Shown here: positions 1,784 to 41,441 of the stretch, piece after piece
Numbering within the stretch: the stretch's first letter is position 1
How the letters are laid out: every line of letters starts with the position of its first letter
Assembly: GCA_036505355.1 (NCBI GenBank)
Contig: DASXTP010000105.1
Coordinates: 2,613 to 66,612 of the forward strand
Reading direction: 5' to 3'
From: Candidatus Eiseniibacteriota bacterium
Lineage (GTDB): Bacteria > Eisenbacteria > RBG-16-71-46
Length of the DNA: 64,000 nucleotides
Program-made: the position numbers and the translations under genes
The notes under the pieces: generated by a model
What the model was told of the DNA's origin: nothing
The model's database searches: none
Seen by the model: only the letters and a program-made list of their open reading frames with translations

Positions 1784-2260
1784 TCAGGGCTGAGGAGGGC
1801 CCGCCACCGTGAGCGTCCGCAAATAGTCCACCACATTCAGGATCTGCCGCTCATTGAGCGTGTGCCCCCACGGGGGCATCCCGGTGGAGAGCCCGACCGC
1901 GCCACCACCGGAGCGGATCGCGGCCAGCAGATCGGCATCGGAGTGCCTCGCCTGGAAGCTCGAATCGGCCAGCGACCGGGGCCGCGGGTCAAGGTTGTAG
2001 GCATTGAAGCCGTCGCCCTTCCCGGCCTCGCCGTGGCAGTTCAGACAGTAGTGGCGATAGAGCGACCGACCTTCGCGGGCGTTGTATCCGAGTTCAGGGA
2101 TCGGCAAGATCGACGCGGAGTAGATCGCGCCAGCACTGTCGGCCGTCGTTGACTCGGCCGCCGTCGGCGCCCGCGTGGTACCGGTGCCACGACAGCCACC
2201 GCCGGCCCACGCCAACACCGCAGCCATCACCACCCCCGACGCGCACAGGCCGCGCCTCAT
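1784..2260 (-). CDS. monoheme c-type cytochrome (class I), secreted/lipoprotein-like
   Basis: Signal-like N-terminus MRRGLCASGVVMAAVLAWAGGGC. Single CLNCH heme motif and a later Met-containing region. ATGA start/stop overlap with the upstream octaheme cytochrome gene. Confidence 0.7.
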   Translation of the reverse strand: MRRGLCASGVVMAAVLAWAGGGCRGTGTTRAPTAAESTTADSAGAIYSASILPIPELGYNAREGRSLYRHYCLNCHGEAGKGDGFNAYNLDPRPRSLADSSFQARHSDADLLAAIRSGGGAVGLSTGMPPWGHTLNERQILNVVDYLRTLTVAGPPQP

Positions 2261-4314
2261 CGCCGCTTTTCTCCCCACCGTGCAGCCGGCTTGGCGGACG
2301 TAGCCGCGCCGTGCCCCACCGTTAGGGGCGGGATCGACGCCACGTACGCAGTCAGCGCACGGGCATCGGCGTCGTCGAGTCCGTAGTCGGGCTCGCGTGC
2401 GTCGGCCCGCCAGCGCTGCGGGGCCTTCAACCAGGAATAGATCCAGCCCGTCTTCAGCCGTTGGCCGGCCCCATCGAGGACAGGGCCATAGAAGCCCCCC
2501 CTGCCGCCGATCATGTGGCAGGCCTGACAGCCGTAACGCTCGTGGAAGAGTTTCCTCCCCCGCTCGACCTCCTCGGCTGCCGATGCGGCCGGGAGGATCT
2601 CTCCGGGGATGCTGTCGTTGCGCAACACGTTTTCGACGAAGCTGGCGATGAACGTCCGCTGGTCGTCGGGCATCTGAAGCTGGATCATTCGTTCTTCGAG
2701 GATCGGCCTGACCGTCGTCGGTAGCTTGAGGTAGCCGGCGAGCCAGCTCTCGCGCACCTTGCTCCCCTCGGCCGTGAGCGGCGCAGTGGAGATGTCGCCG
2801 CCTACTCCGCCGATCTGGTGACACGACATGCACCGGTACTGGCGCACCAGCTCCCCGAAGTGACCCGGAGGGGTATACGAAGTCTCGTGCACCGGCACCT
2901 GGTAGGCCACAGGGACCGGCACGCGCCCGATGGAGAGGAGCGCCGTCGTCAGCGCGTCCGTCTCGTGCTCGGTGAAGCCGAAACGAGGCATCTTCAGCCC
3001 GTCGCGGAACGAGCGTGGGTTGGTGATCTTGGCCGCGAGCCAGTCGGGCAGCCTGCGAGGTAGGTCGTCTCGCCGACCGAAATCGAGCCGGCCGACCGGT
3101 TTGTCCCCGATCCCAGTCAGCTCCGGACCAATCGCCGCTCCCTGACTGTGGCCGCCGATCTGGTGGCAGCCGTTGCAGCCCGCGCGGCGGAAGATGGCCT
3201 CACCTGCCTGCACCACGCGGTCGGCGGAGCGAATGCCCGGCGCGGGCGCCGGTGCCGACGCATCCGTGAATTCCTGAATCATGTAGTCGGCGAGGTCGGC
3301 CACGTCTGACCCACCGAAGTGATACCGCGGCATCTTCGTGTCGGGATAGAAGCGCTGCGGATCGGCGAGGAAGGCGACGAGCCAGCGGCGGGACACCTTG
3401 GACCCGACCCCTGATAACTCCGGCGCGCTCCCATTCCCCCGACCTTCGACGGTGTGGCACGAGATGCACCGCGAGGTCGAGAACAGAAGCTTGCCATGGT
3501 CCGCATTGCCCGACGCGACCACGGCGGTCGATTCGGCGTCGAGATCAACGCGCGGCGGGCGGCTCCACAGGAATGCCACCACCGAATCGATCTCGGCGGC
3601 GGTGAGCAGGAAATCAGGCATCCATGTCGAGGGTCGCAGGGACCTGGGCGACCGGATCCACGCTGCGAGCCACGCCGGATTGGTCTTCTGCGACAGCCCG
3701 GCGAGGTCGGGCGCTTCGCTCTTCCAGCCCTCGTGGCCCGCGACCTTGTGGCAGCCGAAGCAGCCCACCCGCGCCATGAGCCCGCGCCCCTCCGATAGGA
3801 GTGAGGCTTCGGGCACGGTATCGCCAGGATGACAGCGGCCACACGCTGCTTCGGTGTAGCGCACCGGGAGGATCGGCGAACTCCAGTCGGGTACGCGGCC
3901 GTGCGCCTCGGCCACGGTGGTCGCGCGCCCTTGCCCCAGATGACAGGCGACGCATCCGAACCGGTCGAGATCCCCGGGCGTGTGCGGCGTGCGCGGGTGC
4001 TGGCGGAACGGCTCGGGGGCCCCGGCCATGCGTGGCTCCTCGACGCCGAGGTGGCAGCTGACGCAGCGGTCGACATGATTGTCGAGCGCGGGCAGCCAAA
4101 TCTGGCGCACGCCCACCCCGCGCGTCTGGGCCTGCTTCAACTCCTTGAGCGAGGCCGCAGAGTGTAGCAGCCGCTGCCGATACTCATTCTGGTAGCGACG
4201 GTACTCGCGGAAGTAGTCCTTGATCGGTGAGATCGCCAGCACAAGGAGGAAGGTCACGCTGGAGACACCGAACCAGAACCACAGCCGGTCCGACGATGGC
4301 CCGGGCGAGTTCAC
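2257..4314 (-). CDS. membrane-anchored octaheme c-type cytochrome (cytochrome c subunit of the bc complex)
   Basis: GTG start preceded by GGAGGA and overlapping the subunit IV stop (GTGA). N-terminal TM helix (LWFWFGVSSVTFLLVLAI). Eight CxxCH motifs: CVSCH, CVACH, CGRCH, CFGCH, CISCH, CNGCH, CMSCH, CQACH. The last four lie in GxxLFxxxxCxxCH class-I-like modules. Confidence 0.75.
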   Translation of the reverse strand: MNSPGPSSDRLWFWFGVSSVTFLLVLAISPIKDYFREYRRYQNEYRQRLLHSAASLKELKQAQTRGVGVRQIWLPALDNHVDRCVSCHLGVEEPRMAGAPEPFRQHPRTPHTPGDLDRFGCVACHLGQGRATTVAEAHGRVPDWSSPILPVRYTEAACGRCHPGDTVPEASLLSEGRGLMARVGCFGCHKVAGHEGWKSEAPDLAGLSQKTNPAWLAAWIRSPRSLRPSTWMPDFLLTAAEIDSVVAFLWSRPPRVDLDAESTAVVASGNADHGKLLFSTSRCISCHTVEGRGNGSAPELSGVGSKVSRRWLVAFLADPQRFYPDTKMPRYHFGGSDVADLADYMIQEFTDASAPAPAPGIRSADRVVQAGEAIFRRAGCNGCHQIGGHSQGAAIGPELTGIGDKPVGRLDFGRRDDLPRRLPDWLAAKITNPRSFRDGLKMPRFGFTEHETDALTTALLSIGRVPVPVAYQVPVHETSYTPPGHFGELVRQYRCMSCHQIGGVGGDISTAPLTAEGSKVRESWLAGYLKLPTTVRPILEERMIQLQMPDDQRTFIASFVENVLRNDSIPGEILPAASAAEEVERGRKLFHERYGCQACHMIGGRGGFYGPVLDGAGQRLKTGWIYSWLKAPQRWRADAREPDYGLDDADARALTAYVASIPPLTVGHGAATSAKPAARWGEKRR

Positions 4315-5011
4315 AGGTGGACTCCTCCCTGCCACGGCCAGATCCACCTCCACCCGGGACCGCGGAAGAAGGTGCCGATCAGGGTGAGAGTGACCGCCAC
4401 GGTGACGAACCATGTCATGATCCAGTCGCTGATCGTCACGCGGACGAGCCGTCGCCTCCACCATGGGGGACAGGGCGGCAGCGAGGGCAGCAACATCGAC
4501 GAAAAGAGCAAGACCGTCGGCACGAGCACCGCCCATACGCGCCAGGCCACGAGGAAGGCCACGATCGCCGCGGCCACGGTGGTCAGCCACGCCAGCCGCC
4601 GTCGCGAGGGAGCCTCGAGGAAACCCCGGTCCTCGAGATTCGTTCGGAAGTAAGGGATCACCACCATCGCGACCACCACCATCCCCGGGATCAGCACGCC
4701 GGCGACGACCGGCGGGAAGTAGTGGAGCAACTCCTGAAGTCCGAGGAAGTACCAGGGCGCCTTGGCGGGGTTGGGCGTATTGGTCGGGTCGGCGATACCC
4801 TCGAGCGGAGAATCGAAGAAGAGCGACAGCAGCGCCATCGCGATCACGCAGACCTGGATCAGGATGACCTCGCGCAGCAGCAGATGCGGCGCCGTCATCA
4901 CGGTTTCGTCCTGGTCGAAGAGGACGCGGGCGGCGGTCTCGGGGCGGAGGATTGCCAGCCGTTTCGGCGTCGCCGTGGCGTCGCTGCTCGGCTCCAGCCG
5001 GTACTCGGTCA
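4311..5011 (-). CDS. petD: cytochrome b6-f complex subunit IV-like (cytochrome b C-terminal domain)
   Basis: PWYFLGLQELL motif and 3 TM helices. Separate gene directly downstream of the cytochrome b6 N-terminal domain gene (ATGA overlap), i.e. a split cytochrome b as in b6f-type complexes. Confidence 0.8.
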
Positions 5012-5755
5012 TGCTTCCTCCCTGCGAAGGGGAGCCGTGCGACACGACCCGGCGAGGCCGCCGTCCTTGCGCACCCGCCAGAGATGGAGCCCGACCAGGA
5101 ACACCAGCGCCAGCGGCAGGATGACGCAGTGAAGCACGTAGAAGCGGAGGAGGGCATTTTCGCCGACGATGTTGCCGCCCAGCAGCAGATAACGGAACTG
5201 CGGCCCGATGACCGGCATCGCCTTCACCATGTTCGTGCCGACCGAGACCGCCCAGAAGGCGAGCTGGTCCCACGGTAGGAGATAGCCGGTGTAGCTCAAG
5301 AGCAGCGTCAGCAGCAAGAGGGCGACGCCGATTACCCAGTTGAACTCGCGCGGTGGGCGGTAGGCCTTGTGATAGAAGACGCGCAGCATGTGCAGGAAGA
5401 CGACGATCACCATCGCGTGCGCGGGCCAGCGGTGCAGGTTGCGGAGGAACATGCCGTTGCTCACCGTGAACTGCAGCTCTTTCATATCGTGGTAGGCCTG
5501 TGGCACCGAGGGGTGGTAGTAGAGCATCAGCAGGAGGCCGGTGGCGGTGAGGATCGCGAACAGGATCAGGCCAACGGCCCCGAGGTAGTACGTGCTCGAG
5601 CCTTCGAGGCTGCGCCGCCGCACCTTGGCCGAGTGCAGGTGCAGGGTGAGACTTTCCATCACCACCATCACGCGGTTGCGGTTCGTGGCCCGGATACCGT
5701 GGCGGACCACGGAGCGCCACACACGGCTCTCGGTGATCGACTCCGGTAGCTTCAT
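5009..5755 (-). CDS. petB: cytochrome b6 (cytochrome b N-terminal domain)
   Basis: Four-helix bundle with conserved His pairs ([19 protein letters not shown]) and the WDQLAFW motif typical of cytochrome b/b6. Confidence 0.85.
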
Positions 5756-5764
5756 CTCGTCCTC

Positions 5765-6244
5765 TCAGAACCGGTCGGTGGTGCCCGCCGGAACCTCTAC
5801 CGCCGTGTCCACGATCAGCTCTCCCTTTTCGGAGAGGCTCATCTGCAACCAGCGGAGGGGGCGCGGCGCGGGTCCCGCGACGACGTCGCCGGCGAGCGTG
5901 AACTGGCTGCCGTGGCAGGGACAGGCGATGATGTTCCGGTCGGGCTGGAAGCGCGTGATGCATCCGAGGTGGGTGCACACGGCCGACAGCGCCCGGAATC
6001 CTTCCGCGATTCGGATCACGTAGGCGCGCTGCTCCACGTTGGTCACCACCGATCCAACCTCGATCGCCTCTGGCGGCCCGGCGGAGAACGCAGTGGGCGG
6101 CTCAAACAGCACGCGCGGCCGGAGGAAGTCGACCAGCACCACGCCTGCACCACCGGCCGCCACGGCACAGGCAGTCAGCCCGGCGGCAACGCAGAAATCG
6201 CGGCGTGTGATTGGCGGTACGTTGGCGACGTCGGCGTCAGACAT
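5765..6244 (-). CDS. petC: Rieske [2Fe-2S] iron-sulfur protein with Tat signal
   Basis: Twin-arginine motif ITRRDFCVAAG. Rieske boxes CTHLGC and CPCHGS. Confidence 0.85.
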   Translation of the reverse strand: MSDADVANVPPITRRDFCVAAGLTACAVAAGGAGVVLVDFLRPRVLFEPPTAFSAGPPEAIEVGSVVTNVEQRAYVIRIAEGFRALSAVCTHLGCITRFQPDRNIIACPCHGSQFTLAGDVVAGPAPRPLRWLQMSLSEKGELIVDTAVEVPAGTTDRF

Positions 6245-8111
6245 GGGCCGGCTCCAGCAGCCGGAACTGCTCCATGGTGATGGTCCCCGCTGGGCAGCGA
6301 TCGGCACAAAGTCCACATCGGATGCAGACCGTCTCGTCTTTGATCAACGCAGTGCCCGAGCCACCTTGCTTGGCGAGCAGCGCCGCAGCGGTCTCCCCGT
6401 GTTCCGTGCGCACCAGATCCCGCAGCGCCGGATCGGCCGCGAGCTCCGACAGCGGCAGGAAGCTGATGCAATCCTCCGGACACACGTCGGCGCAGCCGCC
6501 GCACAGGATGCACTCGGTGCCCTGCTCCGCATCTTCGTGAAACACGGTGTTGACCCAGCAGTGGAAGCAGCGCGAGGCCTCGCGTTGCGCGTCCGCCTCC
6601 GAGAAACATTGCTCGATTTCAGCGATGCCGACCCGCCGCTCGATCGGCAGGGCCGGTGGACGCTGGCGAGGCACACCCTCGTAATCCAGCACGCGCCGGT
6701 ATCCGGGCAACGGTTCGATGAGCACTTCCTCAGGCGGCAGCGGGAGTGCAGAACCGCGTAGATAGGTGTGGATCGAAGCGGCGGCCTTCTTGCCGTCGGC
6801 GACGGCCTCGATCGCGATGCGTGGTCCGAACGCGGCGTCGCCCCCAGCGTAGATGCCCGGAGCGCTGGTAGCGAGCGTCGTCGGATCCACCTGAAGCGTA
6901 CTGCGCGGCGTCACCGCCACGCCGTCCTCCGGCTGCAGGAACGACAGATCGCAGGCCTGACCGATGGCGAGCACGATCGTGTCCGCCGCGATCGCCAGCT
7001 CGGTGCCGGGTACGAACGTGGGATTGAAGCGGCGCTGGGCGTCGAAGACAGCAGAGCACTCGATGGTCTCGAGACCGGTCACGGAGCCCGCCTCGCCGAG
7101 AATGCGTTGCGGGCCCCGCCCCGGGTGGATCACGATGCCCTCCCGCTGCGCCTCGCGGATCTCCTCGCGGTCGGCCGGCATGGCCTCGAGCGACTCGAGG
7201 CACACGATGTGAACTTCCTTGGCGCCAAAGCGGATCGCGGAGCGCGCGACGTCGAACGCCGTCACGATGTTGAGGCCCGGATGGATGACCTCCTCCCGCG
7301 CCGGAGCCCGCAAGGCGGAACGGGCCACGTCCACCGCGACGTTCCCGCCGCCGACGACCAGCACGCGCCGGCCGAGCTCGACCCGGTAGCCCATGTTGAC
7401 GTTCAGCAGGAAATCCACGCCCTTGAGGACCCCGTCTAGATCGGCGCCGGGAATCTCGAGATCGCGGCTCCGCTGCGCGCCAGGGGCGAGAAAGACGGAC
7501 CGGAAGCCCTGGCGGCGCAGGTCCGACAGCAAGAAATCACGGCCGAGGCGGGCCCCGACCTTGAGTTCGACGCCGAGGTTGAGGATCGCGTTGATCTCGA
7601 GCTTGATCAGCTCGCGCGGCAGACGATATTCGGGGATCCCAAGCCGTAGCATCCCTCCCGGCACCGGCTGAGCTTCGAAGATGGTGACCGGGTAGCCGAG
7701 AAGCGCCAGGTCGTGCGCGGCCGCAAGCCCCGCCGGGCCTGCGCCGATGATCGCCACGCGGTCCTCCGGGTAGCGCCGCAGACGATCACCGTAGATCTCC
7801 TTCAGCAGATCCACGTCCATCATGCTCTCCACGCCGAAGCGCTCGGTGACGAAACGCTTGAGCGCCCGGATGGCAATCGGCTCGTCGAGCGCCCCCCGCC
7901 GGCACGCCGGCTCGCAGGGCGCGGCGCAGATGCGACCACAGATGGACGCGAGCGGATTCGGCCGCCGCGCCACGGCGTAGGCCTCGCGGTACTTCCCCTC
8001 CGCGATCAACGCAACGTAACGCCCGGCCTCCGTGCCGACGGGACAGGCCTTGAAGCAGGGGAAGTTGCTCTCCAGCCACCCCCGGTCGACGAGGCGATCC
8101 GAATCGGACAC
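6237..8111 (-). CDS. NAD(P)H-dependent FAD oxidoreductase of the glutamate-synthase small-subunit (GltD) family fused to 2x[4Fe-4S] ferredoxin domains
   Basis: N-terminal Cys cluster (CFKACP...CGRICAAPCEPAC). Two Rossmann GxGxxG motifs (IIGAGPAGLAAA, VVGGGNVAVD). C-terminal CILCGGCADVCP and CIRCGLCADRCP ferredoxin motifs. Confidence 0.75.
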   Translation of the reverse strand: MSDSDRLVDRGWLESNFPCFKACPVGTEAGRYVALIAEGKYREAYAVARRPNPLASICGRICAAPCEPACRRGALDEPIAIRALKRFVTERFGVESMMDVDLLKEIYGDRLRRYPEDRVAIIGAGPAGLAAAHDLALLGYPVTIFEAQPVPGGMLRLGIPEYRLPRELIKLEINAILNLGVELKVGARLGRDFLLSDLRRQGFRSVFLAPGAQRSRDLEIPGADLDGVLKGVDFLLNVNMGYRVELGRRVLVVGGGNVAVDVARSALRAPAREEVIHPGLNIVTAFDVARSAIRFGAKEVHIVCLESLEAMPADREEIREAQREGIVIHPGRGPQRILGEAGSVTGLETIECSAVFDAQRRFNPTFVPGTELAIAADTIVLAIGQACDLSFLQPEDGVAVTPRSTLQVDPTTLATSAPGIYAGGDAAFGPRIAIEAVADGKKAAASIHTYLRGSALPLPPEEVLIEPLPGYRRVLDYEGVPRQRPPALPIERRVGIAEIEQCFSEADAQREASRCFHCWVNTVFHEDAEQGTECILCGGCADVCPEDCISFLPLSELAADPALRDLVRTEHGETAAALLAKQGGSGTALIKDETVCIRCGLCADRCPAGTITMEQFRLLEPAHV

Positions 8112-8118
8112 CGGATGC

Positions 8119-8709
8119 CTACTTCTTCATCGCGAAGTCGGCCGCTGTCGCCCCCGCGATGGTGACGGTCTTGCCGACCTCGGCTTTGAACCTCGGGTGC
8201 CAGACCTTCACGGTGTAGGCGCCGTCGGGGAGGCCCTTGATGGCATAGGCGCCGGTCTTGTCGGTGACGGCGAACCAGGGGGTCGGAAGCACGACGACGA
8301 AGCCTTCCATCTCGGCGTGCACGTGGCACAGAAGTGTGGCGTTGCATCGCGTCTTGAACGTGTAGCTACGAATCTGCCCCTGCGGCCAGCTCCCCAGGTT
8401 GAACTGCTCGCAACACTTGTCGGGCGAGAAGACGTTGTGGAGGACCTGGTCGCCATTGAGGAAGTCGACCGTGGTCCCCATCAGCACGGGTAGGACGTGG
8501 GGCGTGAACACCAGGTTCTTCTGATTCATCTTGGCGTGAGTCGTCGGCGCCGGGAACTTTTTCCCGGCGATCGCGTCGATATAGACGACCGCGTCGGCGT
8601 TGTTCTTCATGCCGGCCACCGTGACGACCCCTTTGAGCTCCCCTGCCGCCGCGGCCCAAGCCACCACGAACGTCAACACGGCACATCCCATGCCGGACAA
8701 GAGTTTCAT
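8119..8709 (-). CDS. secreted blue copper protein (cupredoxin, type-1 Cu site) with carboxypeptidase-regulatory-like C-terminal segment
   Basis: Signal peptide MKLLSGMGCAVLTFVVAWAAAAG. Putative Cu ligands H (LHNVFS, as in plastocyanin PHNIVF) and C-x2-H-x2-M (LLCHVHAEM, amicyanin-like spacing). C-terminal TGAYAIKGLPDGAYTVKVWHP. Confidence 0.6.
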   Translation of the reverse strand: MKLLSGMGCAVLTFVVAWAAAAGELKGVVTVAGMKNNADAVVYIDAIAGKKFPAPTTHAKMNQKNLVFTPHVLPVLMGTTVDFLNGDQVLHNVFSPDKCCEQFNLGSWPQGQIRSYTFKTRCNATLLCHVHAEMEGFVVVLPTPWFAVTDKTGAYAIKGLPDGAYTVKVWHPRFKAEVGKTVTIAGATAADFAMKK

Positions 8710-8744
8710 GCCTCTTCCTTTCGTCGGTCGGCCGGTGACTGAGA

Positions 8745-10067
8745 TCAGAATCCGATGATGACGCCGAGCGTGCCTCCCTCATTCGTGAACTTGCCGCCCG
8801 GCTCCTTCACCCAGGTGCCGGCCAAGAACGACTTGACGTTGGCGCGGGCCAGGCCGTTGACGGTGAGCGATACCTGCTCGGTCTTCTCGTCGGCGATCTT
8901 GAGCGACTCCCACCTCCCGGCCGGAATCAGCCAGGGAAGCGCCACCCAGGACAGTTCCGCGAATTGGTTCTTGATCTTGACGTCGGTGATCGTCGGATCC
9001 GCCACGAAAAGACGGTCGTCCTTCCGGTCCGTGTATCCGGCGCGCGCCATCAGGTCGAGGTAATTCACGGCCATGTCGCCCCCGGCCATTCGAAACGGAT
9101 CGCGGGCGTTGGGGTCCAGGGGATCTCCCCCTTCGAGGATGCTCTTGCCCTTGTAGACGAACCCGGAGAGCGTGAGGGAGGTCTCGCTCCACGGCTTGGG
9201 GTTGGTCGGCAGCGCCGCTTCTGCGCCACCGCTGGGAACTCCGTCGAACGGCAGCCCGCCGAGCTTGTAGGCCAGCCGACCGTACACGTCCTTCGAATTG
9301 TCGCCGATGCTTCCCGATCCCTCCACCACACCGGCGTTGTAGAGCACGCGGTGCTCGAGCATTCCGTAGGCCTCGAGACCTTGCTGGAAGCCATCGGGAG
9401 CCCAGGGGTTGTCGCCGGCGGACTCCGTCAAGACCAGCGGTTCCTGGTCCAGGATGGAGCGGTGCGAGGACAGCAGCATGATTCCTGGCTCGAAGGAGCC
9501 GACCTTGAACTGCAGGGCGGGCGAATCGAGCGGGCGCACCAGCAGATTGACGCGCTCCATCTCGGTCGCGATCTCGCTCCCGTCGCGGGCGAACACAACC
9601 GATCCCCAGAAGGAGAAATGCTCGTCGAGGGTCCCGGCGCCCAGAATTTCGAGCTCGCCGCCCATACCACCAAATGTGGTGGTCTTGGTCGCGTGATCGT
9701 AGTCGACCGCGCTCGTGTAGAGGACAGCGACCGGCGGCATCCCGGGGATCTCTCCCGGCCAGACCGCATGCGGCCAGAGCTTCTTGTAGCCCTCAGCGCC
9801 GATCGAGACCGGAGGGATCTTCGTCATTGCCGCATCGTTGCCCCCAGGAAAGCGGTAGCCATTCTGTCGGAATGCCTCGCCGAAGGGAGTCAGCGCGGGG
9901 ATCGCGACGTGGCAAGTCTGACAGCTCGTCTGGTACTTCCGCGCAAACGCCGGAATCGTGTAGGCATTCCGGGGCGCGATCAGCGCCGCCGAATACAGCA
10001 CGATCAGCGTCAGCCCGAACACGGTACGTACGTCGAACACCATCGGCTTGGGTCCTTCTCGTAGCAT
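8745..10067 (-). CDS. cyc2: Cyc2-like fused monoheme cytochrome c / outer-membrane beta-barrel porin
   Basis: Signal peptide then a single CQTCH heme motif about 45 aa from the N-terminus (AFARKYQTSCQTCHV). The remaining ~380 aa have alternating beta-strand character and end in the OMP-type terminal ...GVIIGF. Size (440 aa) and architecture match Cyc2 of iron oxidizers. Confidence 0.6.
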   Translation of the reverse strand: MLREGPKPMVFDVRTVFGLTLIVLYSAALIAPRNAYTIPAFARKYQTSCQTCHVAIPALTPFGEAFRQNGYRFPGGNDAAMTKIPPVSIGAEGYKKLWPHAVWPGEIPGMPPVAVLYTSAVDYDHATKTTTFGGMGGELEILGAGTLDEHFSFWGSVVFARDGSEIATEMERVNLLVRPLDSPALQFKVGSFEPGIMLLSSHRSILDQEPLVLTESAGDNPWAPDGFQQGLEAYGMLEHRVLYNAGVVEGSGSIGDNSKDVYGRLAYKLGGLPFDGVPSGGAEAALPTNPKPWSETSLTLSGFVYKGKSILEGGDPLDPNARDPFRMAGGDMAVNYLDLMARAGYTDRKDDRLFVADPTITDVKIKNQFAELSWVALPWLIPAGRWESLKIADEKTEQVSLTVNGLARANVKSFLAGTWVKEPGGKFTNEGGTLGVIIGF

Positions 10068-10196
10068 GGCCCCTCCTCGCGTCAGCGGGACTTTCGAACG
10101 AGGACGAGGCTAGAAGGACAAGGCGAGCGTCACCATCCGCGGAACGAATCATTCTTCTGATGCGGATGCATCAGAAGTCTGCCAGCCGAGGAGGGC

Positions 10197-10868
10197 TCAG
10201 AGCAGGTGGGTGCGAAGCGCCAGCGAGACTGCCTCGAGCTTGCTGTGGACGTCGAGCTTGCGGAGGATGTTCTGAACGTGGTTCCGTGTCGTCGTAACGC
10301 TGATGAACAGTGAATCGGCGATGCCCTGAGTGCTCGTTCCTTCGGCCAGAAGAGCGAGGACCTGGACTTCGCGCGGGGTCAGCACCGGCGACGGGGGCAA
10401 CGACGGCTCGTTGGCCGCGGGAGCCGACACCGGTGGGGCGTGTTGCTGGGTCAGGATTCGGCGGATCAGCTGGTCGACATCGCGGCGACGATCGACCCGC
10501 TCCAGGAAGTGGATCAGCGTGTACTGCCGCGCGCGAGGGCCTGGCATCACGACGATCGAGAAGCTGGCCGGGACGGTCTCGCCCGACTCGTTGCGGACGT
10601 CGAGCTCGAAGTGGCGTACCGATTCGTGTCGTTCGACCATGAACGTCAGGGCGCACTGGCGGTCGCAGAAGCGGTTACCGAAGACATCTCGCCCACAGAG
10701 GATCTCATGGCAGGACTTGCCGAGGACCTGGGAGGCGGGATAGCCGAGCATCTCCTGGGCACCCTTGTTCCAGATGGCGATGCGCCCCTTCTCGTCGGTC
10801 GCGAAGGCGGCCGCGCCGGCGCGGCCGATCACGTCCAGTGGGTCCACGATCAACGCATCCTTTCGCCT
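10197..10868 (-). CDS. LuxR-family transcriptional regulator with N-terminal PAS sensor domain (start uncertain)
   Basis: C-terminal LuxR HTH (LTPREVQVLALLAEGTSTQGIADSLFISVTTTRNHVQNILRKL). PAS-like segment (IAIWNKGAQEMLGYPASQVLGKSCHEIL). Upstream part of the long ORF looks non-coding. Confidence 0.65.
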   Translation of the reverse strand, partial: RRKDALIVDPLDVIGRAGAAAFATDEKGRIAIWNKGAQEMLGYPASQVLGKSCHEILCGRDVFGNRFCDRQCALTFMVERHESVRHFELDVRNESGETVPASFSIVVMPGPRARQYTLIHFLERVDRRRDVDQLIRRILTQQHAPPVSAPAANEPSLPPSPVLTPREVQVLALLAEGTSTQGIADSLFISVTTTRNHVQNILRKLDVHSKLEAVSLALRTHLL

Positions 10869-11269
10869 CTGCGCGAATCCTCTCCCCCGCGCCTCGTCCA
10901 GCGCGCAACGAGAGCGGGCCAATGGTCCTACCTCATCCCACAGGAAGGCAGCGGGATCGTTGGGCCCTGGCGCGGCTGGAGAGCATAGGCACTCGGACCC
11001 TGCTTTCGACGAAAAATCAGCGAATCGAATAGCGGACCCTCGCCCTACCACTTGGCCATGCCGCATCAACAAACTGCGGGGTAGAGACTTATGGCGCACT
11101 CGGGGAGCGAAAACCGACCCGAAAGATCCGACAAGACCGCTGCGGCGACCCCGCCACGGGTCGCCACTCTTACCCCCCGTCCAGACCTAGCGCGCGGGCG
11201 GCGCATTTTGTCGCAGCTTTTCCCCCAGCCGCTTCGCCCAGTCCAGCGACAGCGCGATCTCGCGGCGCT

Positions 11270-12009: not shown

Positions 12010-14790
12010 GTGAACGATCGGCCGCAGACGCTGGGACCTTATCCCGTCGAGCGCGAGCTGGGGCGTGGCGGGATGGGCGTCGTCTATCTCGCGCGCGACC
12101 CCAAGCTCGACCGCCGGCGATCAAGGTGCTCCCCGACGAGTTCGCTCGCGACCCGGAGCGGCTGGCGCGCTTCGAGCGCGAGGCCCGATTGCTCGCCTCG
12201 CTCAGCCACTCGAACGTGGCCGGCATCTACGGCATCGAGGAGGCTGCCGGGAAGCGACTCCTGATCCTCGAGTACATCCCAGGCGATACGCTGGCGGCCC
12301 GCACCACCCTCGGGCCTTTGCCCCTCGACGAGGCGTTGGACGTGTGCCGGCAGATCGCCCTGGCCGTCGAGGCCGCGCACGACGGCGGGGTCGTCCATCG
12401 CGACTTGAAGCCCGGCAACGTGAAGATCACGCCCGATGGGCAGGTAAAGGTCCTCGACTTTGGCCTCGCTAAGGGCGGGGCTGGAACGCCGTCCAGCTCG
12501 GGCCCGGACCTTTCGCAGTCGCCGACCATCACCTACGCCGCGACCGGTGCCGGCGTGATCCTCGGCACTGCCGCCTATATGAGTCCGGAGAAGGCGCGCG
12601 CGAAACCGATCGACAAGCGCACCGACATCTGGTCGTTCGGCTGCGTGCTCTACGAATGCCTGACCGGCCGGCAGGCGTTCGGCGGCGAGACCGTCTCGGA
12701 CACCATCGCCAGGATCCTCGAGCGCGAGCCCGACTCGTCGGCGCTGCCACCGCAGACGCCGGCGACCGTGCGGGAGCTGCTGCGCCGCTGCCTCGAGAAG
12801 GACGCAAAGAAGCGCCAGCGTGACATCGGCGACGCGCGCCTCGAGCTGGAGGAGGCGATCGCCGCCCGGTCCACTGCCACGCGCGCGGCGGCCGCGGCCG
12901 CCGAAGCGCGGAGCCGCGCGGTGCCCTCGCCACGCACCTGGGCGCTCGTGGCCGTGGCCCTGGTGCTCGGTGCCGCCGCCGGGATCGGCGTCTGGGTGGC
13001 CGCCGGGGCAGGAGCCTCCAGCGCTCGGAGCGGCCGGCCTGTCCACTTGTCGCTGACCACGCCGCCGTCCATTCGTGCTTCGGCTGCGAGCCTTTCACCC
13101 GACGGCCGGACCGTCGTCCTCTTCGGCCAAATGCGGAAGCCCGATGGCACCGAAGAGCCACGGTCTCGTCTCTATACGCGGACGCTGGACGACTACGACC
13201 TCAAGCCCATCCCCGGGGCAGAGGGGGCAACCTTCTTCAATTTTTCGCCCGATGGGCGCTGGGTCGCGTTCGTGCATGCCGTTTCCGAGGAATCTTCCAA
13301 GCTCCGACTCTCCAAGGCCCCCGTGGACGGAAGCTTGCCCCCCGTGGTGCTGAGCGAATGGGACGACGCATGGCGTATGGGCTTCGTTTGGCTCGAGGAC
13401 GGCGATCTGCTCATCATCACCGATGCCAGCACCAGCTTCTTCCGGCTGCCGACGGGCGGTGGCGCCGCGAAGCCGGCCAAGAAGCTGGATACCGGCGGCG
13501 TCTCCCCATCCTTCGACTTCGCGAGTGCCCTTCCCGGGGGGCGCGGCGTCCTCCTCAACGCACATGCGTGGGGTCCGCGCGGCTTTCAGGGCGACCTGTG
13601 GCTGCTCGATCCCAAGACGGGCAAGGCACGCCGGCTGCTCGAGAATGCGGGCAATGGCGTCTACTCACGGACGGGGCACCTGCTCTTCACGCGCGGCGAG
13701 GCCTTGATGGCCGCTCCCTTCGACCTGAGGCGCCGCGCGGTAACAGACAATGTGATCGCCCTAATGAGCGGCCTGCGGACGCCCAACTCGTGGGATCACG
13801 CCTACCTCGATGTGTCCCGGGATGGCAGCCTGTTCTACGCTCCGGGCGGCCGGGTCGGGGTGCGGCGCAGCCTGGCGGTCGCGGACGCAGCAGGAAACGT
13901 CACGCCGTTCATCGGCGAGCCGCGCGCCTACCCGGCCGGCGTGGCGATCTCTCGGAACGACCGGAAAGTCGCGGTGGTCATTCCCAACGCGAGAGCAACC
14001 TATGAAATCTGGGTGGCCGATCTGGATCGGCCAGGACTTCGACGCGTCATCGCCCTGCCGACGGCCGACTGCGCGGGGTCAAGCTGGTCCCCCGACGGAC
14101 GGCAGCTGGCATTCAACCGGCAAGCGAGGGACAAGGACGACGGCGCCTATGTACAGCCGGCGGACGGGAGCATGCCGCCCCAACCCGTCATGAAGAGGCG
14201 ATCGGAGCTGGAGTTCATCACTCCCGGGGCTTGGACGCCGGATGGCTCCGCGCTGTTGGTCAACGCATCATCGGGCGGCACGTCGGACAATCTGGTAGTG
14301 CCGATCACGGCGGCGGGAGACACACGGCCAAGGCCCGCCCGATTCTGGCCACGCCCGCGAGCGAATACGGCACTTGCTTCTCGCCCGATGGACGCCTGCT
14401 CGCCTTCATCTCCGACGAATCCGGGAGGTACGAGGCCTACGTCGCGAGCTACCTGCGAAACGGAGCGGCGGGCACACCCGTGATGGTCTCCGAGGGGGTG
14501 CTAGCTGGGCGCGGTGGTCCGGCCACAAGCTCTACTAGGGTCGGGGCCGTCGACCGGATTCCACCCGCGTTGGAGACGGCGACCGACTTCACCCGGTCCC
14601 CTTCTGTGTAGGCCGACATGCGGAAGCTCAGAGCCACGCCTGGCATATTCGACATGCTCGGCGACGGCCGGATGCTCTTCGTCCAGAAAGGCGAGGAGGA
14701 AGACGACGTGAGCCAGTTCCACGTCATCCTCGGATGGTCGAATGAGCTTCGCGCTCGGATGAGCCAATCCCGCGCGGCCGGGGGCGCGCG
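12010..14790 (+). pseudogene. Ser/Thr protein kinase fused to a TolB-like beta-propeller, disrupted by at least three frameshifts and an internal deletion
   Basis: N-terminal kinase start (LGPYPVERELGRGGMGVVYLARDP) is out of frame with the next segment (VAIKVLPDEF...HRDLKPGNV...DFGLAK) near 12118. The propeller part shifts frame near 14330 and again near 14600 (tail FDMLGDGRMLFVQKGEEEDDVSQFHVILGWSNELRARM is in a third frame). About one blade is missing. Confidence 0.7.
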
Positions 14791-16179: not shown

Positions 16180-17343
16180 TTCGGAATTACCGGACATAGG
16201 GCGTTGAAAACGTGAGACCTGCCTTGTATCCCTTGGTTGCTGTTTGCCAACGGCACCTAGGGACAAGGAGGTCTCACGATGAGGCTTCGACTCAGACGGC
16301 CGACTCGGTTGTGGTTGCGGCGATTGGACCGCAAGACTCGCGACGCCGAAGTTCGGGTGCGCTGTCGAGTGTTGTTGAAGGTGGCGGCCGGGATGACCCG
16401 CCACGCTGCCGCGCGGGCGATCGGCTGTGCGCCCGCGACCGCGTGGCGCATCGTAGCGCGTTTTGAGACCCACGGGGAAGCCGCGCTGATGGACGGTCGG
16501 AGTGAGAACGGACGACCCAAGGTCGACGACGATATACGCGCCGGGATCTGCAAGATCCTGGAGCAGAGCCCGCCGGACTTCGGCTTTCCGCGTCCGACCT
16601 GGACGCTGGAGCTGTTGACGCGTGTGATCCAGCAGGTGCTGCAGGTGGCGGTGTCGGTCGGTCACCTGTGGAAGATCCTGCGGCGGTTGCGCGTGCGCTG
16701 GGGACGTCCGCGTCCAGTCGTGCGCTGCCCGTGGAACGCCGCGCACCGCGCGGCCCGGATCGCGGTGCTGCGCCGCCTGGTGGCGCAGCGGCAGCCGGGC
16801 GAGGTGGTGCTCTACGTGGACGAAGCCGATCTGCACCTCAATCCCAAGATCGGTCCCGACTGGATGCTGCTCGGCACGCAGCGCGAGGTGGTGACCCCCG
16901 GCCAGAACGAGAAGCGCCACCTGGCGGGCGCCTACGATCCCGCCCATCAGCGGCTGGTCTACGTCACCGGCGATCGCAAGGCGAGCTGGCTGTTCCTGAA
17001 CCTGCTGCGCGCCCTGCTGGACGCCTGCCGCTGGGCACGCCGCATCCATCTGATCCTCGACAACTACATCATCCACAAGAGCCGCCTGACCCTGGCGTGG
17101 CTCGGCCGTCACGGCGCCAAGTTGCGGCTGCACTTCCTGCCGCCCTACTGCCCGAACGAAAACCGGATCGAACGCCTGTGGCTCGATCCGCATGCCAACG
17201 TGACCCGTAATCACCGGTGCCGCACCATCGATGAGCTACTGGGCGCGGTTCACCACTACCTCGCCCGACGGTTTGATCTCGCTCAAGTCATTGCCTATGC
17301 GGCCTGACCACAGCCTTCCCGAATCAGGCGAAGGCATTTAGCA
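16158..17343 (+). mobile_element. intact IS630-family insertion sequence (about 1.19 kb)
   Basis: 25-bp terminal inverted repeats TGCTAA(G/A)TGCCTTCGCCTGATTCGG at 16158-16182 and, reverse-complemented, at 17319-17343, flanking a single transposase gene. Confidence 0.8.
16279..17307 (+). CDS. IS630-family DDE transposase
   Basis: N-terminal HTH, then VLYVDEADLHL ... LPPYCPNENRIERLW (DDE with IS630-type spacing). 342 aa with good SD (GGAGG) upstream. Confidence 0.85.
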   Translation: MRLRLRRPTRLWLRRLDRKTRDAEVRVRCRVLLKVAAGMTRHAAARAIGCAPATAWRIVARFETHGEAALMDGRSENGRPKVDDDIRAGICKILEQSPPDFGFPRPTWTLELLTRVIQQVLQVAVSVGHLWKILRRLRVRWGRPRPVVRCPWNAAHRAARIAVLRRLVAQRQPGEVVLYVDEADLHLNPKIGPDWMLLGTQREVVTPGQNEKRHLAGAYDPAHQRLVYVTGDRKASWLFLNLLRALLDACRWARRIHLILDNYIIHKSRLTLAWLGRHGAKLRLHFLPPYCPNENRIERLWLDPHANVTRNHRCRTIDELLGAVHHYLARRFDLAQVIAYAA

Positions 17344-20437: not shown

Positions 20438-21973
20438 CTAGGAAGCGCCCAGGACGGAACGCACCACGCCCCGGCAGTCCTCGCTGGCCTCGGCGAGCGC
20501 GGACTCGAGGCGGCGCAAATCCATCTCCACCCCTTGCTTATCGGCGCCGTCGGGTATGGACTTCAGGTTGATTTCGACGTTGAGGAGGGCTCCCTCGGCA
20601 GCCGCCCGGGCCAAAAGCCCCGCCACCCCCGCATCGGTGATCGCGTTGACGTTGCCCCACTTGGCAACCGCCGCCGCCACCTCCACCAACCGCAGGCAGG
20701 CCGCGGCGGTTCGCAACGGAACGCGTGCCGCCTCGAGGTTGGCCTGCGCCAATGCTCGGGCGCGGGCGTCCGCCTCGGACGCCGTGGCATGGGCGAGGCG
20801 CCCCGCCTTCAACACCGCCTCGAAGGCTTCGCCATCGGCCCGCGCCAGCCCCATCAGCTCGCCCCGCAAGGCTTCGGCGTCGCGCCTGAGATCCCGCAGC
20901 GTCGCCTCCTGCTCGGCGTACTTCTTCTTGCCGGTCGAGAGGTTCGCCACCATGGTGACCAGGCAGCTCGCCAGCGCGCCGGCGAACGCCGCCGCCGTTC
21001 CGCCACCCGGCGTGGGCGTCGGGCCGGCGAGTTGATCGAAGAAGCTGGCAATCGAAGTCGCCTCGGCGAGCGGAGGGCGCTTGAGCCTCCGCTCGAGCAC
21101 CTGGTCGCGCCGGAAGCTCTCGAGCTGCAGCGCGTGCTCCGCCGCATCGAGGAGACAGTACTCGGGCACCAGTCCCACGACCTCGCAGCCGGCGATCGCC
21201 GCCCCACGGCGCGCCGCCTCGTCGCGCACCAGGGCCAGCACGCGATGGATCGGCGTCGCCTCGGTGTTGACCAGGTTCATGCTCACCTGCGCCCGACGCC
21301 CGCCCTCGATCGAGAAGCCGAGCGCCCGCACGTGCTTGAGCCCGCCGTTCTGCTCGCGGATCGCCCGCGCGATCGCCTGCGCGATGCGCACGTCGCCGGT
21401 GTTGAGGTTGGCGTTGAACGCCACCAGAAAACGCCGCGCCCCAACCGCCGTCGCCCCGGCCTTCGGGTGAATCTTCGCCGGGCCGAAATCGGGCGCGCGC
21501 GCGGGGTCTTTGCCGATCCGCTCGCGCAGGCCTTCGAATTCGCCGCGGCGCACGTCGGCCAGGCTCACGCGGTCGGGACGCGAGGCGGCGGCCTCGTAGA
21601 GGAACACCGGGATCTCGAGCTCCTCGCCGATGCGCAGACCCAGGGCGCGGGCCAGGTCGGCGCACTCGTCCAACGTGAGCCCCTCGATCGGCACGAACGG
21701 CACCACGTCGGTCGCCCCCATGCGCGGATGCTCGCCCCGGTGATGGTTCAAGTCGATCAGCTCGGCCGCGCGGCGCACCGCGCGAAAGGCGGCCTCCATC
21801 ACCGCTTCCGGCTCGCCGGCGAAGGTCACGACCGAGCGATGGTGATCGGGGTCCATCTCGCTGTCGAGGAACGTGGCGCCGGGGACCGAGGTGATGGCGC
21901 GGATCAGGTCGTCCACCACCTCGCGGCGGCGGCCTTCCGAGAAGTTGGGCACGCACTCGACGAGTCGGGTCAT
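20438..21973 (-). CDS. ftcD: glutamate formimidoyltransferase / formimidoyltetrahydrofolate cyclodeaminase (bifunctional)
   Basis: N-terminus MTRLVECVPNFSEGRR is the formiminotransferase signature. The C-terminal ~190 aa are the helical cyclodeaminase domain. Confidence 0.85.
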   Translation of the reverse strand: MTRLVECVPNFSEGRRREVVDDLIRAITSVPGATFLDSEMDPDHHRSVVTFAGEPEAVMEAAFRAVRRAAELIDLNHHRGEHPRMGATDVVPFVPIEGLTLDECADLARALGLRIGEELEIPVFLYEAAASRPDRVSLADVRRGEFEGLRERIGKDPARAPDFGPAKIHPKAGATAVGARRFLVAFNANLNTGDVRIAQAIARAIREQNGGLKHVRALGFSIEGGRRAQVSMNLVNTEATPIHRVLALVRDEAARRGAAIAGCEVVGLVPEYCLLDAAEHALQLESFRRDQVLERRLKRPPLAEATSIASFFDQLAGPTPTPGGGTAAAFAGALASCLVTMVANLSTGKKKYAEQEATLRDLRRDAEALRGELMGLARADGEAFEAVLKAGRLAHATASEADARARALAQANLEAARVPLRTAAACLRLVEVAAAVAKWGNVNAITDAGVAGLLARAAAEGALLNVEINLKSIPDGADKQGVEMDLRRLESALAEASEDCRGVVRSVLGAS

Positions 21974-22022
21974 GACCGGGGCCTGGTTCGAGCACGACGC
22001 GCGTCGGGGATCGCGGCCCCGC

Positions 22023-23330: not shown

Positions 23331-23331
23331 G

Positions 23332-33400: not shown

Positions 33401-33775
33401 GCTGCGAATCGACGGCGGCGCCGGACCCGACGGCAGGCACCGGGTGGTACGCCTGCAGCTGCAGTTCGAGCGGCGGCGGGTCCATCAGCCAGCAAGCCCG
33501 AACGAGCAGGGTCTCGCCCGGGATCGGCTCGCGCAGCAGCCTCAGAACGCCACGCGTCCGGTCGAGCGCGTAGTCGACATCGCGCAGCAGAGAACCCCGG
33601 GCGGTCCAGATCGAATCGGTCCCGGCGCGCAAGAAGGCGTGGGGCAGGAGGTATTGAACGGTGCTCGACCGCTGGACCACCGCCACGACACCACAGGCGG
33701 GGTCCGAGACTACCGCCGCCGGCTCCCCGGCCGCCACGCACCGAGCCATCATCAACGCAGCGAGCATCCACCCCC
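30432..33775 (-). CDS. large (1114 aa) beta-rich envelope protein translationally coupled to the Omp85 gene (TamB-like partner or giant OMP; function uncertain)
   Basis: Gly/Arg/Asp-rich repetitive beta-strand-like sequence with a C-terminal ...AELRAFF beta-signal-like ending. Start chosen at MLAALMMARCVAAG after GGGGGTGG. No enzymatic motifs. Confidence 0.45.
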
Positions 33776-33847
33776 GGCCCAAGGCGATCGAGCATCGACC
33801 TCCGCGACCCGGTCGCAGCTCCCGGCCCGGCGAGCGCGGCCCGCGGC

Positions 33848-35007: not shown

Positions 35008-35036
35008 CGAGGGGAATGCCCCCCCGTCGGCTCCAC

Positions 35037-35175
35037 TTGAAATGGCGCGATCGACTGCGTTGGCTCGGTCGGTTGCTTCCTCGATGCGGCTTGAAGACCA
35101 CGATCCCCGGGCACCCGCCGCAGGCGGGTCGCCATCCTTCGCACGCCTTGCGCTCGGACGTTTTCAAAACGGAGC
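35037..35175. repeat. ~135-bp repeated intergenic element, copy A (about 80% identical to copy B at 46105-46235)
   Basis: Shared blocks: GAAAACG, CTGCGTTGG(C/T)TCGGTC, GAAGACCACGATCCC, CTTCGCACGCCTTGCGCTCG, CGTTTTCA. Lies 30 nt upstream of the NHL-repeat gene start codon. Confidence 0.6.
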
Positions 35176-40362: not shown

Positions 40363-40389
40363 GAGGGGTACCGGTTGCGAGGGCGTCCG

Positions 40390-41337: not shown

Positions 41338-41441
41338 ACGAGCTCCTCCGGACACGCTACCAGCCCCTGTCCCAGTTGGATGAAACATACTACACCGGGC
41401 CGGGCCCCGAGGCTCCAAGGTTTTTTCCCGAGCCGAGTTGG

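Follow-up and report, generated by a model that had tools for sequence, protein, structure and literature searches.

A Cyc2-type cytochrome-porin, a cupredoxin, an anammox-like Rieske/cytochrome b module and an NfnB/GltD-type flavoprotein encoded together in a gene cluster conserved across bacterial phyla

The 64,000-nucleotide stretch of DNA analysed here (the window) comes from contig DASXTP010000105.1 of a Candidatus Eiseniibacteriota genome and carries, close to one end, a compact cluster of genes for a Cyc2-type cytochrome-porin, a copper protein, a flavoprotein, a Rieske/cytochrome b complex and two cytochromes c. A six-frame listing of open reading frames (ORFs), combined with inspection of start codons, places eight co-directional genes on the minus strand, packed within 1784-10067; we call them A to H in their order of reading. 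An earlier, sequence-only reading had spoken of nine consecutive genes. The minus-strand string stands, but the interval contains eight genes, and a count of nine is reached only by adding a LuxR-PAS gene at 10197-11099, which lies outside it. The gene calls of JGI (3300036864, Ga0376053_0000089) give lengths of 432, 196, 624, 159, 248, 233, 685 and 158 amino acids (aa) from A to H, and their sole difference from the ORF listing is the start of gene A, set eight codons later (10043; 432 aa).

The junctions between the genes are tight. Genes E and F share an ATGA overlap, F and G a GTGA and G and H again an ATGA, which bears out the start-stop overlaps noted before; C and D overlap by 8 nt, and the remaining gaps within the operon measure 7, 9 and 35 nt. 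A, B and E each have a good Shine-Dalgarno sequence in front of them, and N-terminal export or anchor segments are present in A, B, G and H. A consensus scan for sigma-70 promoters returned 0 sites, not above the shuffled expectation, and a terminator scan returned 4 terminator-like sites against 4.6 expected in shuffled sequence; both scans are uninformative, so that gene spacing and conservation alone argue for co-transcription.

Gene A (8745..10067, minus strand; 440 aa) encodes a Cyc2-type fused monoheme cytochrome c-porin. It has zero matches in Pfam or NCBIfam scans, and its more than 1,000 homologs, from metagenome-assembled genomes (MAGs) of Eisenbacteria, Acidobacteriota, Myxococcota, Planctomycetota, Calditrichota and others, are annotated as hypothetical in every case. 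A signal peptide is predicted, with a hydrophobic segment at residues 13-31, and the only CXXCH motif is CQTCH at residue 49. In an alignment of 40 homologs, Cys49, Cys52 and His53 are invariant, and the N-terminal block IPAFARKYxTSCQTCHVAFPxLTPFGEAF is nearly so. The family consensus around the heme site is AIPAFARKYxTSCQTCHVAFPxL, with P39, R43, Y45 and L59 invariant; the window copy reads TIPAFARKY-QTS-CQTCH-VAI-PAL, with Thr at motif position 1 where most orthologs have Ala. Keffer et al. (2021) defined the Cyc2 signature as AXPXFAR[Q/K][T/Y] just N-terminal to a single CXXCH, followed by PXL; they called the AXPXFAR[Q/K][T/Y] motif unique to Cyc2 and described the porin as 16-stranded and OprO/OprP-like. 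Gene A has all three features, the upstream motif, the PXL and the 16-strand porin: its AlphaFold2 model (pLDDT 78, pTM 0.77) contains 16 long strands in a barrel that is closest in structure to OprP. The published signature and the modelled barrel thus both support the earlier proposal that the 440-aa protein is a Cyc2-like β-barrel.

The same signature is shared by the Cyc2 iron oxidases (Acidithiobacillus ferrooxidans Cyc2, Leptospirillum Cyt572, Mariprofundus Cyc2 PV-1 and 'Ca. Mariimomonas' Cyc2), which resemble gene A in their length of ~440 aa, signal peptide, single N-terminal CXXCH and 16-strand barrel. Unlike the Cyc2 of the studied iron oxidisers, gene A has as its partners a cupredoxin, a Rieske/b complex and an NADP flavoprotein. 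Published surveys of the FeGenie type have found Cyc2 homologs, mostly of cluster 3, in MAGs of Eisenbacteria, Krumholzibacteriota, Acidobacteriota, Bacteroidota and Calditrichota, and the four members of the family tested biochemically, including one from cluster 3, are all Fe(II) oxidases. A single heme placed inside a 16-strand porin, as in our model, suggests a better fit to soluble Fe2+ than to minerals.

Gene B (8119..8709, minus strand; 196 aa) encodes a secreted protein of the type-1-copper class, in which a cupredoxin is combined with a CarboxypepD_reg/transthyretin-like β-sandwich. Pfam and NCBIfam scans return a CarboxypepD_reg domain and a borderline plastocyanin/halocyanin match; close homologs pass Pfam Copper-bind, and the JGI label is plastocyanin. 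His91, Cys128, His131 and Met134 (C-x2-H-x2-M) are kept in at least 90% of 78 orthologs from related loci, and the copper ligands are invariant in a second alignment. With the type-1 ligand set (His...Cys-x(n)-His-x(n)-Met) and the cupredoxin fold (model pLDDT 79) both present, the type-1 site is well supported by the conserved residues, and the protein is expected to bind copper. The CarboxypepD_reg match covers only positions 28-81 of the HMM (hidden Markov model), at residues 143-194, and strands at residues 23-44 lie N-terminal to the copper domain; judging from the model, the sandwich may be split, with the cupredoxin domain (about residues 46-142) as an insert.

Gene C (6237..8111, minus strand; 624 aa) encodes an FAD/NAD(P)-binding iron-sulfur flavoprotein of the NfnB/GltD type. 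Its Pfam matches are Pyr_redox_2 (4e-31), an N-terminal Fer4_20 (9e-17) and Fer4/Fer4_7; the C-terminal domain is of the 2x[4Fe-4S] dicluster ferredoxin type, and ~21 Cys fall into ferredoxin-type groupings. In NCBIfam it matches the PRK12771 NAD(P)-binding protein (444 bits), and the top PDB sequence matches are NfnABC (9bov/9bp5, 321 bits), followed by NfnA, NfnI-L and GltD. Because it has neither a signal peptide nor a transmembrane (TM) helix, we place it in the cytoplasm, where, by its likeness to Kuste4570 of anammox bacteria, it would dock on the Rieske/b complex.

The Rieske [2Fe-2S] protein of this complex is encoded by gene D (5765..6244, minus strand; 159 aa), with Pfam matches to Rieske (7.5e-11) and to the UCR_Fe-S_N signal for twin-arginine translocation (TAT), a twin-arginine anchor (TRRDF) and the cluster boxes CTHLGC and CPCHGSQF. 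In 50 orthologs, the residues that bind the cluster are kept, and so is the Ser of CPCHGS. The top PDB match of gene D is 9rk4, which is the anammox protein Kuste4569 of Kuenenia stuttgartiensis (107 bits, E 6e-30, 50% identity over 103 residues), and the second-best match reaches only 64 bits.

Gene E (5009..5755, minus strand; 248 aa) encodes a four-helix, b6-type cytochrome b. It matches Pfam Cytochrome_B at 9e-44 and, in NCBIfam, ExtP with 260 bits (cut-off 290) and cytochrome b6 with 187 bits; the top PDB matches are cyanobacterial b6 proteins (144 bits). The heme-ligand residues His108, 122, 209 and 224 are conserved. The position that holds the heme-cn ligand Cys35 in b6 is Tyr57 in gene E and W, Y, F, L, G or A, never Cys, in its orthologs. 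An N-terminal extension carries a conserved LHxH (His39, His41) near the position of His43, the proposed ligand of an extra heme b in anammox cytochrome b. A bridging heme between this His pair and the flavoprotein finds no support in the alignment, as the pair is kept both with and without the flavoprotein and shows no co-variation with it. Further to the heme ligands, conserved His residues occur at 39, 41 and 113, and a conserved Cys210 stands beside His209.

Gene F (4311..5012, minus strand; 233 aa) encodes a subunit-IV-like protein with Pfam Cytochrom_B_C at 1.5e-5 and NCBIfam ExtQ at 50 bits (cut-off 150). A hydropathy scan indicates ~5 TM segments, as against 3 in subunit IV of b6f. The segment PNPAKAPWYFLG is kept in at least 90% of 46 orthologs, and the same holds for the quinol-oxidation (Qo) site motif, APWY, which makes the complex a member of the APWY clade of Kao & Hunte, who assigned this motif to complexes fed from the high-potential side. 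A true b6f complex can be rejected, since there is no cytochrome f gene and no Cys at the heme-cn position; the earlier description as a b6f-type bc complex therefore survives for the split cytochrome b and fails for the b6f identity.

Gene G (2257..4314, minus strand; 685 aa) stands in the place of cytochrome f or c1, neither of which is encoded. It is an anchored octaheme cytochrome c with one N-terminal TM helix and CXXCH motifs at residues 84, 121, 158, 185, 283, 380, 495 and 596, and it matches Pfam Cytochrom_C four times (2.6e-38) as well as Cytochrome_C7, an architecture of a c7/c3-like tetraheme part joined to four class-I cytochrome c domains. Its NCBIfam match to ExtS scores 94 bits (cut-off 100). 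The last gene, H (1784..2260, minus strand; 158 aa), encodes a monoheme class-I cytochrome c (Pfam Cytochrome_CBB3, 6.5e-13; CLNCH at residue 72), in which Cys23, the CXXCH and an MP motif are kept among 36 orthologs; the conserved Cys23 suggests that it is probably a lipoprotein. An assignment of gene H to the Cyt579 of Leptospirillum was rejected at 27.9 bits against an equivalog cut-off of 280 for cytochrome579.

Pfam and NCBIfam scans, alignments and modelling together uphold every protein assignment that had been made from the letters, as well as the heme motif counts of one, eight and one for the porin, the 685-aa and the 158-aa protein. The proposed layout, from the surface through the periplasm to a bc complex and an NAD(P) flavoprotein, also agrees with the predicted topologies.

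The middle module resembles a Rieske/cytochrome b complex of the anammox R/b-2 kind. Anammox bacteria encode two Rieske/b complexes with an NAD(P) oxidoreductase subunit, Kuste4569-4574 and Kustd1480-1485 (R/b-2, R/b-3), and a five-TM subunit IV is reported for both; a bifurcation of quinol electrons between NAD(P)+ and a high-potential acceptor has been proposed for them, a scheme that fits the measured potentials (Hauser 2025, PMC12954380, reviewing Kartal 2013). Operon and anammox complexes have in common the Rieske protein, a four-helix b6-type cytochrome b, a 5-TM subunit IV, a hexa- or octaheme cytochrome c that replaces cytochrome f, and a GltD/NfnB-like flavoprotein. The direct comparison with anammox sequences covered Rieske D, and C, E, F and G are likened by architecture; gene D has the Ser of CPCHGS-x-F in common with Kustd1480, and flavoprotein C shares with Kuste4570 the structural relative NfnABC 9bp5, reported as a structural homolog of the latter (PMC12954380). 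The claim that the exact gene combination was undescribed thus fails for the set of Rieske protein, b6, subunit IV, multiheme cytochrome c and GltD-like part, which is the anammox R/b architecture of Kuste4569-4573 and Kustd1480-1485. Unlike that architecture, the operon lacks a HAO-like octaheme protein and a Cys at the heme-cn position of gene E, has the flavoprotein gene before the Rieske gene and not after it, would place its complex in the ordinary cytoplasmic membrane of non-anammox heterotrophs, and joins the complex with Cyc2 and a cupredoxin in one operon.

Luecker 2013 reported a second set of relatives, likened here by description: in Nitrospina gracilis, 'Ca. Methylomirabilis oxyfera' and Kuenenia, a bc operon of the b6 type includes an atypical octaheme cytochrome c. 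Like the present operon it combines a Rieske protein, a split cytochrome b and an octaheme cytochrome c, but as described it includes neither Cyc2 and cupredoxin nor an NAD(P) flavoprotein. Its carriers need reverse electron transport from a high-potential donor (Luecker 2013).

To follow the cluster across genomes, two Cyc2 peptide patterns were scanned across 185,579 species-representative genomes. This gave at least 561 confirmed loci, of which 80 were kept and their gene content determined by tblastn with the window proteins. The complete order A-B-C-D-E-F-G(-H) occurs in 35 of the 80, from Eisenbacteria, Krumholzibacteriia, Acidobacteriota (including Vicinamibacteria), Bacteroidota, Ignavibacteriota, Calditrichota and one bin labelled Betaproteobacteria, and another 8 begin alike until their contig ends. 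The collinear cluster therefore spans at least six phyla, and such recurrence of the gene arrangement is far beyond chance. Flanking genes are unrelated from locus to locus, and identity to the window falls to 33-40% for A and 55-65% for E; a gene order held at such low identities has been maintained over deep divergence. The suggestion that the genes form one unit is thus strengthened by the neighbourhood comparison.

Departures from the complete order are also informative. An arrangement A-B-D-E-F-G without the flavoprotein was found in 10 of the 80 loci (11 with the inverted L051), mostly in MAGs of Myxococcota or deltaproteobacterial affiliation, and A and B lie within a few kilobases of each other, usually adjacent, in 77 of the 80, a count that overlaps the other arrangement classes. 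In about 13 loci of various lineages, with 8-10 kb of downstream sequence present, A and B have other neighbours. One locus with 77% Cyc2 identity (L083, identical to L003; 11980-20916) keeps Cyc2, the cupredoxin and G-like octaheme and H-like monoheme cytochromes, while the C-D-E-F block is replaced by a set resembling alternative complex III (ACIII), with pentaheme c7-like, molybdopterin-like, Fe-S and NrfD subunits, a small protein and a tetraheme cytochrome c. This exchange of the Rieske/b block for an ACIII-like set marks the middle unit as a quinone-reactive membrane complex. Elsewhere (L085, 10001-16714) Cyc2 and cupredoxin stand beside a COX2-cytochrome c protein and several proteins without a Pfam match, and in L086 (14537-15787) b6 and subunit IV are fused into one 416-aa cytochrome b.

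Based on these findings, we consider it very likely that the encoded parts are wired into a single route for electrons that joins the cell surface with the pools of quinone and NADP(H); the tight and overlapping junctions, the collinearity of 35 plus 8 of the 80 loci and the unrelated flanks all support one functional unit. It is also probable, judging from the protein family, that Cyc2 acts as an inward Fe(II) oxidase. For the narrower proposal that the inward flow runs in series with a Rieske/b complex working in reverse, we estimate a probability of roughly 0.45. In this proposal Cyc2 would take electrons from soluble Fe(II) at the cell surface and pass them to the cupredoxin, from there to cytochromes H and G, and on to the Rieske centre. 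The Rieske/b complex, operating against its usual direction, would then reduce menaquinone at the Qo site, while a second, low-potential electron would cross the b hemes, driven by the membrane potential; this electron could come from quinol at the quinone-reduction (Qi) site, as in a reverse Q cycle, or from NADPH via the flavoprotein. By alternating with quinol bifurcation, the same complex could form NADPH and would spend proton-motive force in doing so; overall, extracellular iron would be connected with the pools of quinone and NADP(H) with no part for complex I.

Inward flow at Cyc2 is favoured because the tested Cyc2s oxidise Fe(II), because the porin is of a kind suited to a soluble substrate, because the carriers are of high-potential types and because Cyc2-cupredoxin pairs with COX2. 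The type-1 copper site, the His/Met class-I c domains and the Ser-containing Rieske box suggest such types, and anammox Rieske proteins have been measured at +303 and +335 mV (PMC12954380). The COX2-cytochrome c protein found next to Cyc2-cupredoxin in another lineage (L085) is comparable to the arrangement of the rus operon. Series coupling with a reversed complex is favoured by the co-inherited Rieske/b or ACIII module, by the APWY motif and by precedents for uphill flow, for which both bc1 and ACIII have been invoked in Fe(II) oxidisers and electroautotrophs.

The nearest such precedent is the rus and petI system of A. ferrooxidans, to whose uphill branch the operon had been likened at the outset. 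Both systems can be drawn as Cyc2, cupredoxin, c cytochrome, bc-type complex and NAD(P)H, and in both Cyc2 and the cupredoxin are encoded together. The likeness in component order and topology holds, whereas the flow to NAD(P)H through the complex is mechanistically awkward, as set out below. The systems also differ in their parts. In A. ferrooxidans the uphill bc1 has an unsplit cytochrome b and c1 and is encoded in a separate operon, complex I reduces NAD+, and the rus operon contains an aa3 oxidase, of which this operon has none; gene B is not a rusticyanin, its CxxHxxM site being fused to a transthyretin-like domain, and the host appears, by inference, to be a neutrophilic, menaquinone-type heterotroph.

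Several points weigh against a reversed, iron-fed complex. A simple passage from Fe(II) to NAD(P)H through one such complex is awkward, since Rieske electrons get to the b hemes only through quinone chemistry at the Qo site. By our own reasoning, the entry of a Rieske electron into the quinone pool requires that a low-potential electron on heme bL enters with it, and a net yield of NADPH from Fe(II) would need alternating reverse and bifurcating turnovers. The sole published mechanism for a complex of this type runs forward, from quinol to NAD(P)+ and a high-potential acceptor (PMC12954380), and among Cyc2 homologs it is those of cluster 3 whose function is most uncertain according to Keffer et al. 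The hosts resemble proteolytic heterotrophs and show no context of carbon fixation, so that it is not evident why they would need electrons to flow uphill. The quinone of these phyla is generally menaquinone, which we assume here. With menaquinone, a high-potential Rieske centre would lie ~370 mV below the quinone, at the limit of the proton-motive force. Finally, among curated families E, F and G come closest to ExtP, ExtQ and ExtS, from a Geobacter cluster associated with outward transfer.

This last point raises the possibility that the same parts run in the opposite direction. The Geobacter sulfurreducens cluster extHIJKLMNOPQS encodes the OprP-like porin ExtI, cytochromes, the Rieske protein ExtO, ExtP, the membrane protein ExtQ and the lipoprotein cytochrome ExtS; like the operon, it thus brings an outer-membrane porin, c cytochromes and a Rieske/b complex into a single cluster. 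It differs in that ExtI has no fused heme, in its 10- and 12-heme cytochromes, rhodanese and selenoprotein, and in having neither a cupredoxin nor an NAD(P) flavoprotein. An assignment of E, F and G as equivalogs of ExtP, ExtQ and ExtS was rejected, all three falling below the cut-offs (260 against 290, 50 against 150 and 94 against 100 bits), and such scores make them relatives, not equivalogs. In an outward conduit, menaquinol would be oxidised at Qo, one electron would reach NADP+ through the b hemes and Fe-S centres, and the other would travel from the Rieske centre via the octaheme cytochrome and the monoheme cytochrome or cupredoxin to Cyc2 and a soluble, high-potential acceptor outside the cell, such as an Fe(III) chelate or Mn(III), with Cyc2 standing in for a terminal oxidase. 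Bifurcation of quinol electrons to NAD(P)+ fits a Rieske centre at +300 mV energetically, and the best curated matches and the joining of an OprP-like porin with cytochromes and a Rieske/b complex in ext speak for this direction, as does the fact that operons pairing ACIII or bc complexes with a terminal acceptor are common. Known metal reducers occur among the host phyla, and a cyc2-bearing Krumholzibacteria MAG is reported to have risen to abundance in a reactor fed continuously with Fe(III)-nitrilotriacetate. We nonetheless believe that the outward direction is unlikely. Fe(III) reduction has been shown for no protein of the Cyc2 family, minerals would be out of reach of a single heme buried in a small porin, and for a chain at ~+250-300 mV the reduction of Fe(III) oxides is out of range at neutral pH, which leaves few natural acceptors. 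Known outward conduits use low-potential multiheme cytochromes, not cupredoxins, and the sister lineage that pairs Cyc2-cupredoxin with a COX2-type protein argues in the same sense.

The roughly 13 loci in which Cyc2 and the cupredoxin have quite different neighbours, including COX2-like and unknown proteins, identify the pair as a portable input module and thereby bear on another explanation, namely that Cyc2 (from Fe(II)) and the Rieske/b complex (from quinol, making NADPH) independently reduce a common pool of cupredoxin and cytochrome c. This pool would feed oxidases or N-oxide reductases encoded elsewhere, and the co-location of the genes would reflect co-regulation, not action in series. 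Such a scheme needs no reversal of the Rieske/b complex and agrees with the published anammox proposal; as the operon encodes no oxidase, an external acceptor would be needed anyway. Its difficulty is that Fe(II) input reduces the very pool that quinol bifurcation needs oxidised, so that the two activities oppose each other. Strict collinear co-inheritance at 33-40% Cyc2 identity and the swap for ACIII in place point instead to direct coupling, and we regard independent reduction of a shared pool as improbable.

Iron might also not be the substrate. Another small soluble reductant or oxidant, for example Mn(II), sulfur species, selenite or humic-type quinones, could take its place, or the genes might be a transferred block without electron exchange among the products. 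The gene A family has no curated model and is annotated as hypothetical throughout, and the function of its cluster-3 homologs, as mentioned, was called uncertain by Keffer et al.; ExtI, the OprP-like porin of the Geobacter cluster, is linked to selenite and tellurite, and the operon has non-conserved flanks and adjoining remnants of an insertion sequence (IS) of the IS630 family. Set against this are a near-invariant cytochrome signature that is said to be unique to Cyc2, the oxidation of Fe(II) by all four family members that were tested, and a gene order kept down to ~33-40% identity, which recent transfer of a block does not explain. Taken together, we consider these possibilities very unlikely.

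Returning to the inward, iron-fed path, its modules are individually known: Cyc2 with a cupredoxin from rus, NAD(P)-linked Rieske/b complexes from anammox bacteria and a porin with a Rieske/b complex from Geobacter ext. We found no description of a Cyc2-cupredoxin-Rieske/b-NADP flavoprotein cluster in the open-access literature, nor any account there that reports NAD(P)-linked Rieske/b complexes from bacteria other than the anammox group. What appears to be new is that an anammox-type Rieske/b module is hard-wired to Cyc2 and a cupredoxin in one operon. The strongest form of the proposal, that the operon is a widespread, self-contained 'extracellular Fe(II):quinone/NADP+ oxidoreductase' working without complex I, seems rather doubtful to us. 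If it were true, NADP-linked Rieske/b complexes would be an ancient and general bioenergetic device, not an anammox oddity, and many 'heterotrophic' members of the Fibrobacterota-Chlorobiota-Bacteroidota (FCB) group and the Acidobacteriota in soils, sediments and groundwater would draw reducing power from iron.

For the electron acceptors that follow Cyc2 in neutrophilic and uncultured carriers, and for the route from there to reducing power, the operon names specific, conserved candidates: the cupredoxin, the monoheme and octaheme cytochromes c, and the Rieske/b or ACIII module. NAD(P)-linked Rieske/b complexes have been known only from slow-growing anammox enrichments, where quinol bifurcation to NAD(P)H is a proposal; with the occurrence of this complex type in at least six further phyla, more organisms and genes become available for biochemistry. 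If the operon is indeed a wire for electron uptake from iron, Cyc2-positive 'heterotrophs' would have to be included when iron and carbon are budgeted for soils, aquifers and sediments.

Upstream of the operon and on the same strand lies the LuxR(GerE)-PAS regulator gene already mentioned (10197..11099, minus strand; Pfam GerE 1.3e-18, PAS_9 1.4e-11; JGI start 10853, 218 aa), and its position directly upstream, as first described, is confirmed. A LuxR-PAS gene lies 5' of cyc2 in 9 relatives, all from Eisenbacteria, Krumholzibacteriia or Acidobacteriota; in the lineages of L084-L086 a HisKA kinase and a sigma-54 activator replace it as a pair. Between the regulator gene and cyc2, at 10131..10176 on the minus strand, there is a 46-nt block made up of the perfect 22-nt palindrome TTCTGATGCATCCGCATCAGAA and an adjoining 24-nt block, GAATGATTCGTTCCGCGGATGGTG. 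It is conserved as DNA upstream of cyc2 in eight related loci (L001, L002 and L004-L009) and more weakly in L012, and the loci with the palindrome block span three phylum-level lineages, Eisenbacteria, Krumholzibacteriia and Acidobacteriota. This conservation at the DNA level makes the block a candidate operator or promoter of the operon. Divergent from the LuxR-PAS gene and ~1 kb away from it, with one small ORF between, is a 785-aa gene product (12126-14483) in which a Ser/Thr protein kinase is fused to a PD40/Tricorn-like β-propeller.

The remainder of the 64-kb window contains no oxidase, carbon-fixation or quinone-biosynthesis genes that would fix the direction of electron flow. Its content suggests that the host is a proteolytic heterotroph, which agrees with how Eisenbacteria are viewed in the literature. 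Genes for histidine utilisation at 20438-26543 (formiminotransferase-cyclodeaminase, an imidazolonepropionase-like amidohydrolase and histidine ammonia-lyase) would suit a heterotroph that degrades amino acids. Very large secreted peptidases are encoded at 36895-45965 and 54159-57239, namely a gingipain-like C25 peptidase with FlgD_ig, an M6-like peptidase and an S8 peptidase with FG-GAP repeats, and a gene for PorV of the type IX secretion system (T9SS) lies amid the peptidase cluster at 40390-41418.

Mobile elements are found on both sides of the operon. Directly downstream of it are a fragment of an IS630-family (DDE_3) transposase (872-1378) and a truncated sigma factor of the extracytoplasmic function (ECF) type, with region 2 only (1433-1738), and an intact IS630-like gene lies ~6 kb upstream (16279-17307). 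A composite transposon around the operon finds no support, as the two IS630-like copies share no DNA repeat. Further along the window, an ORF of 1570 aa at 30432-35144 has no Pfam match, and at 47240-52033 the dnaE gene for DNA polymerase III alpha is split by an intein with a LAGLIDADG homing-endonuclease domain.

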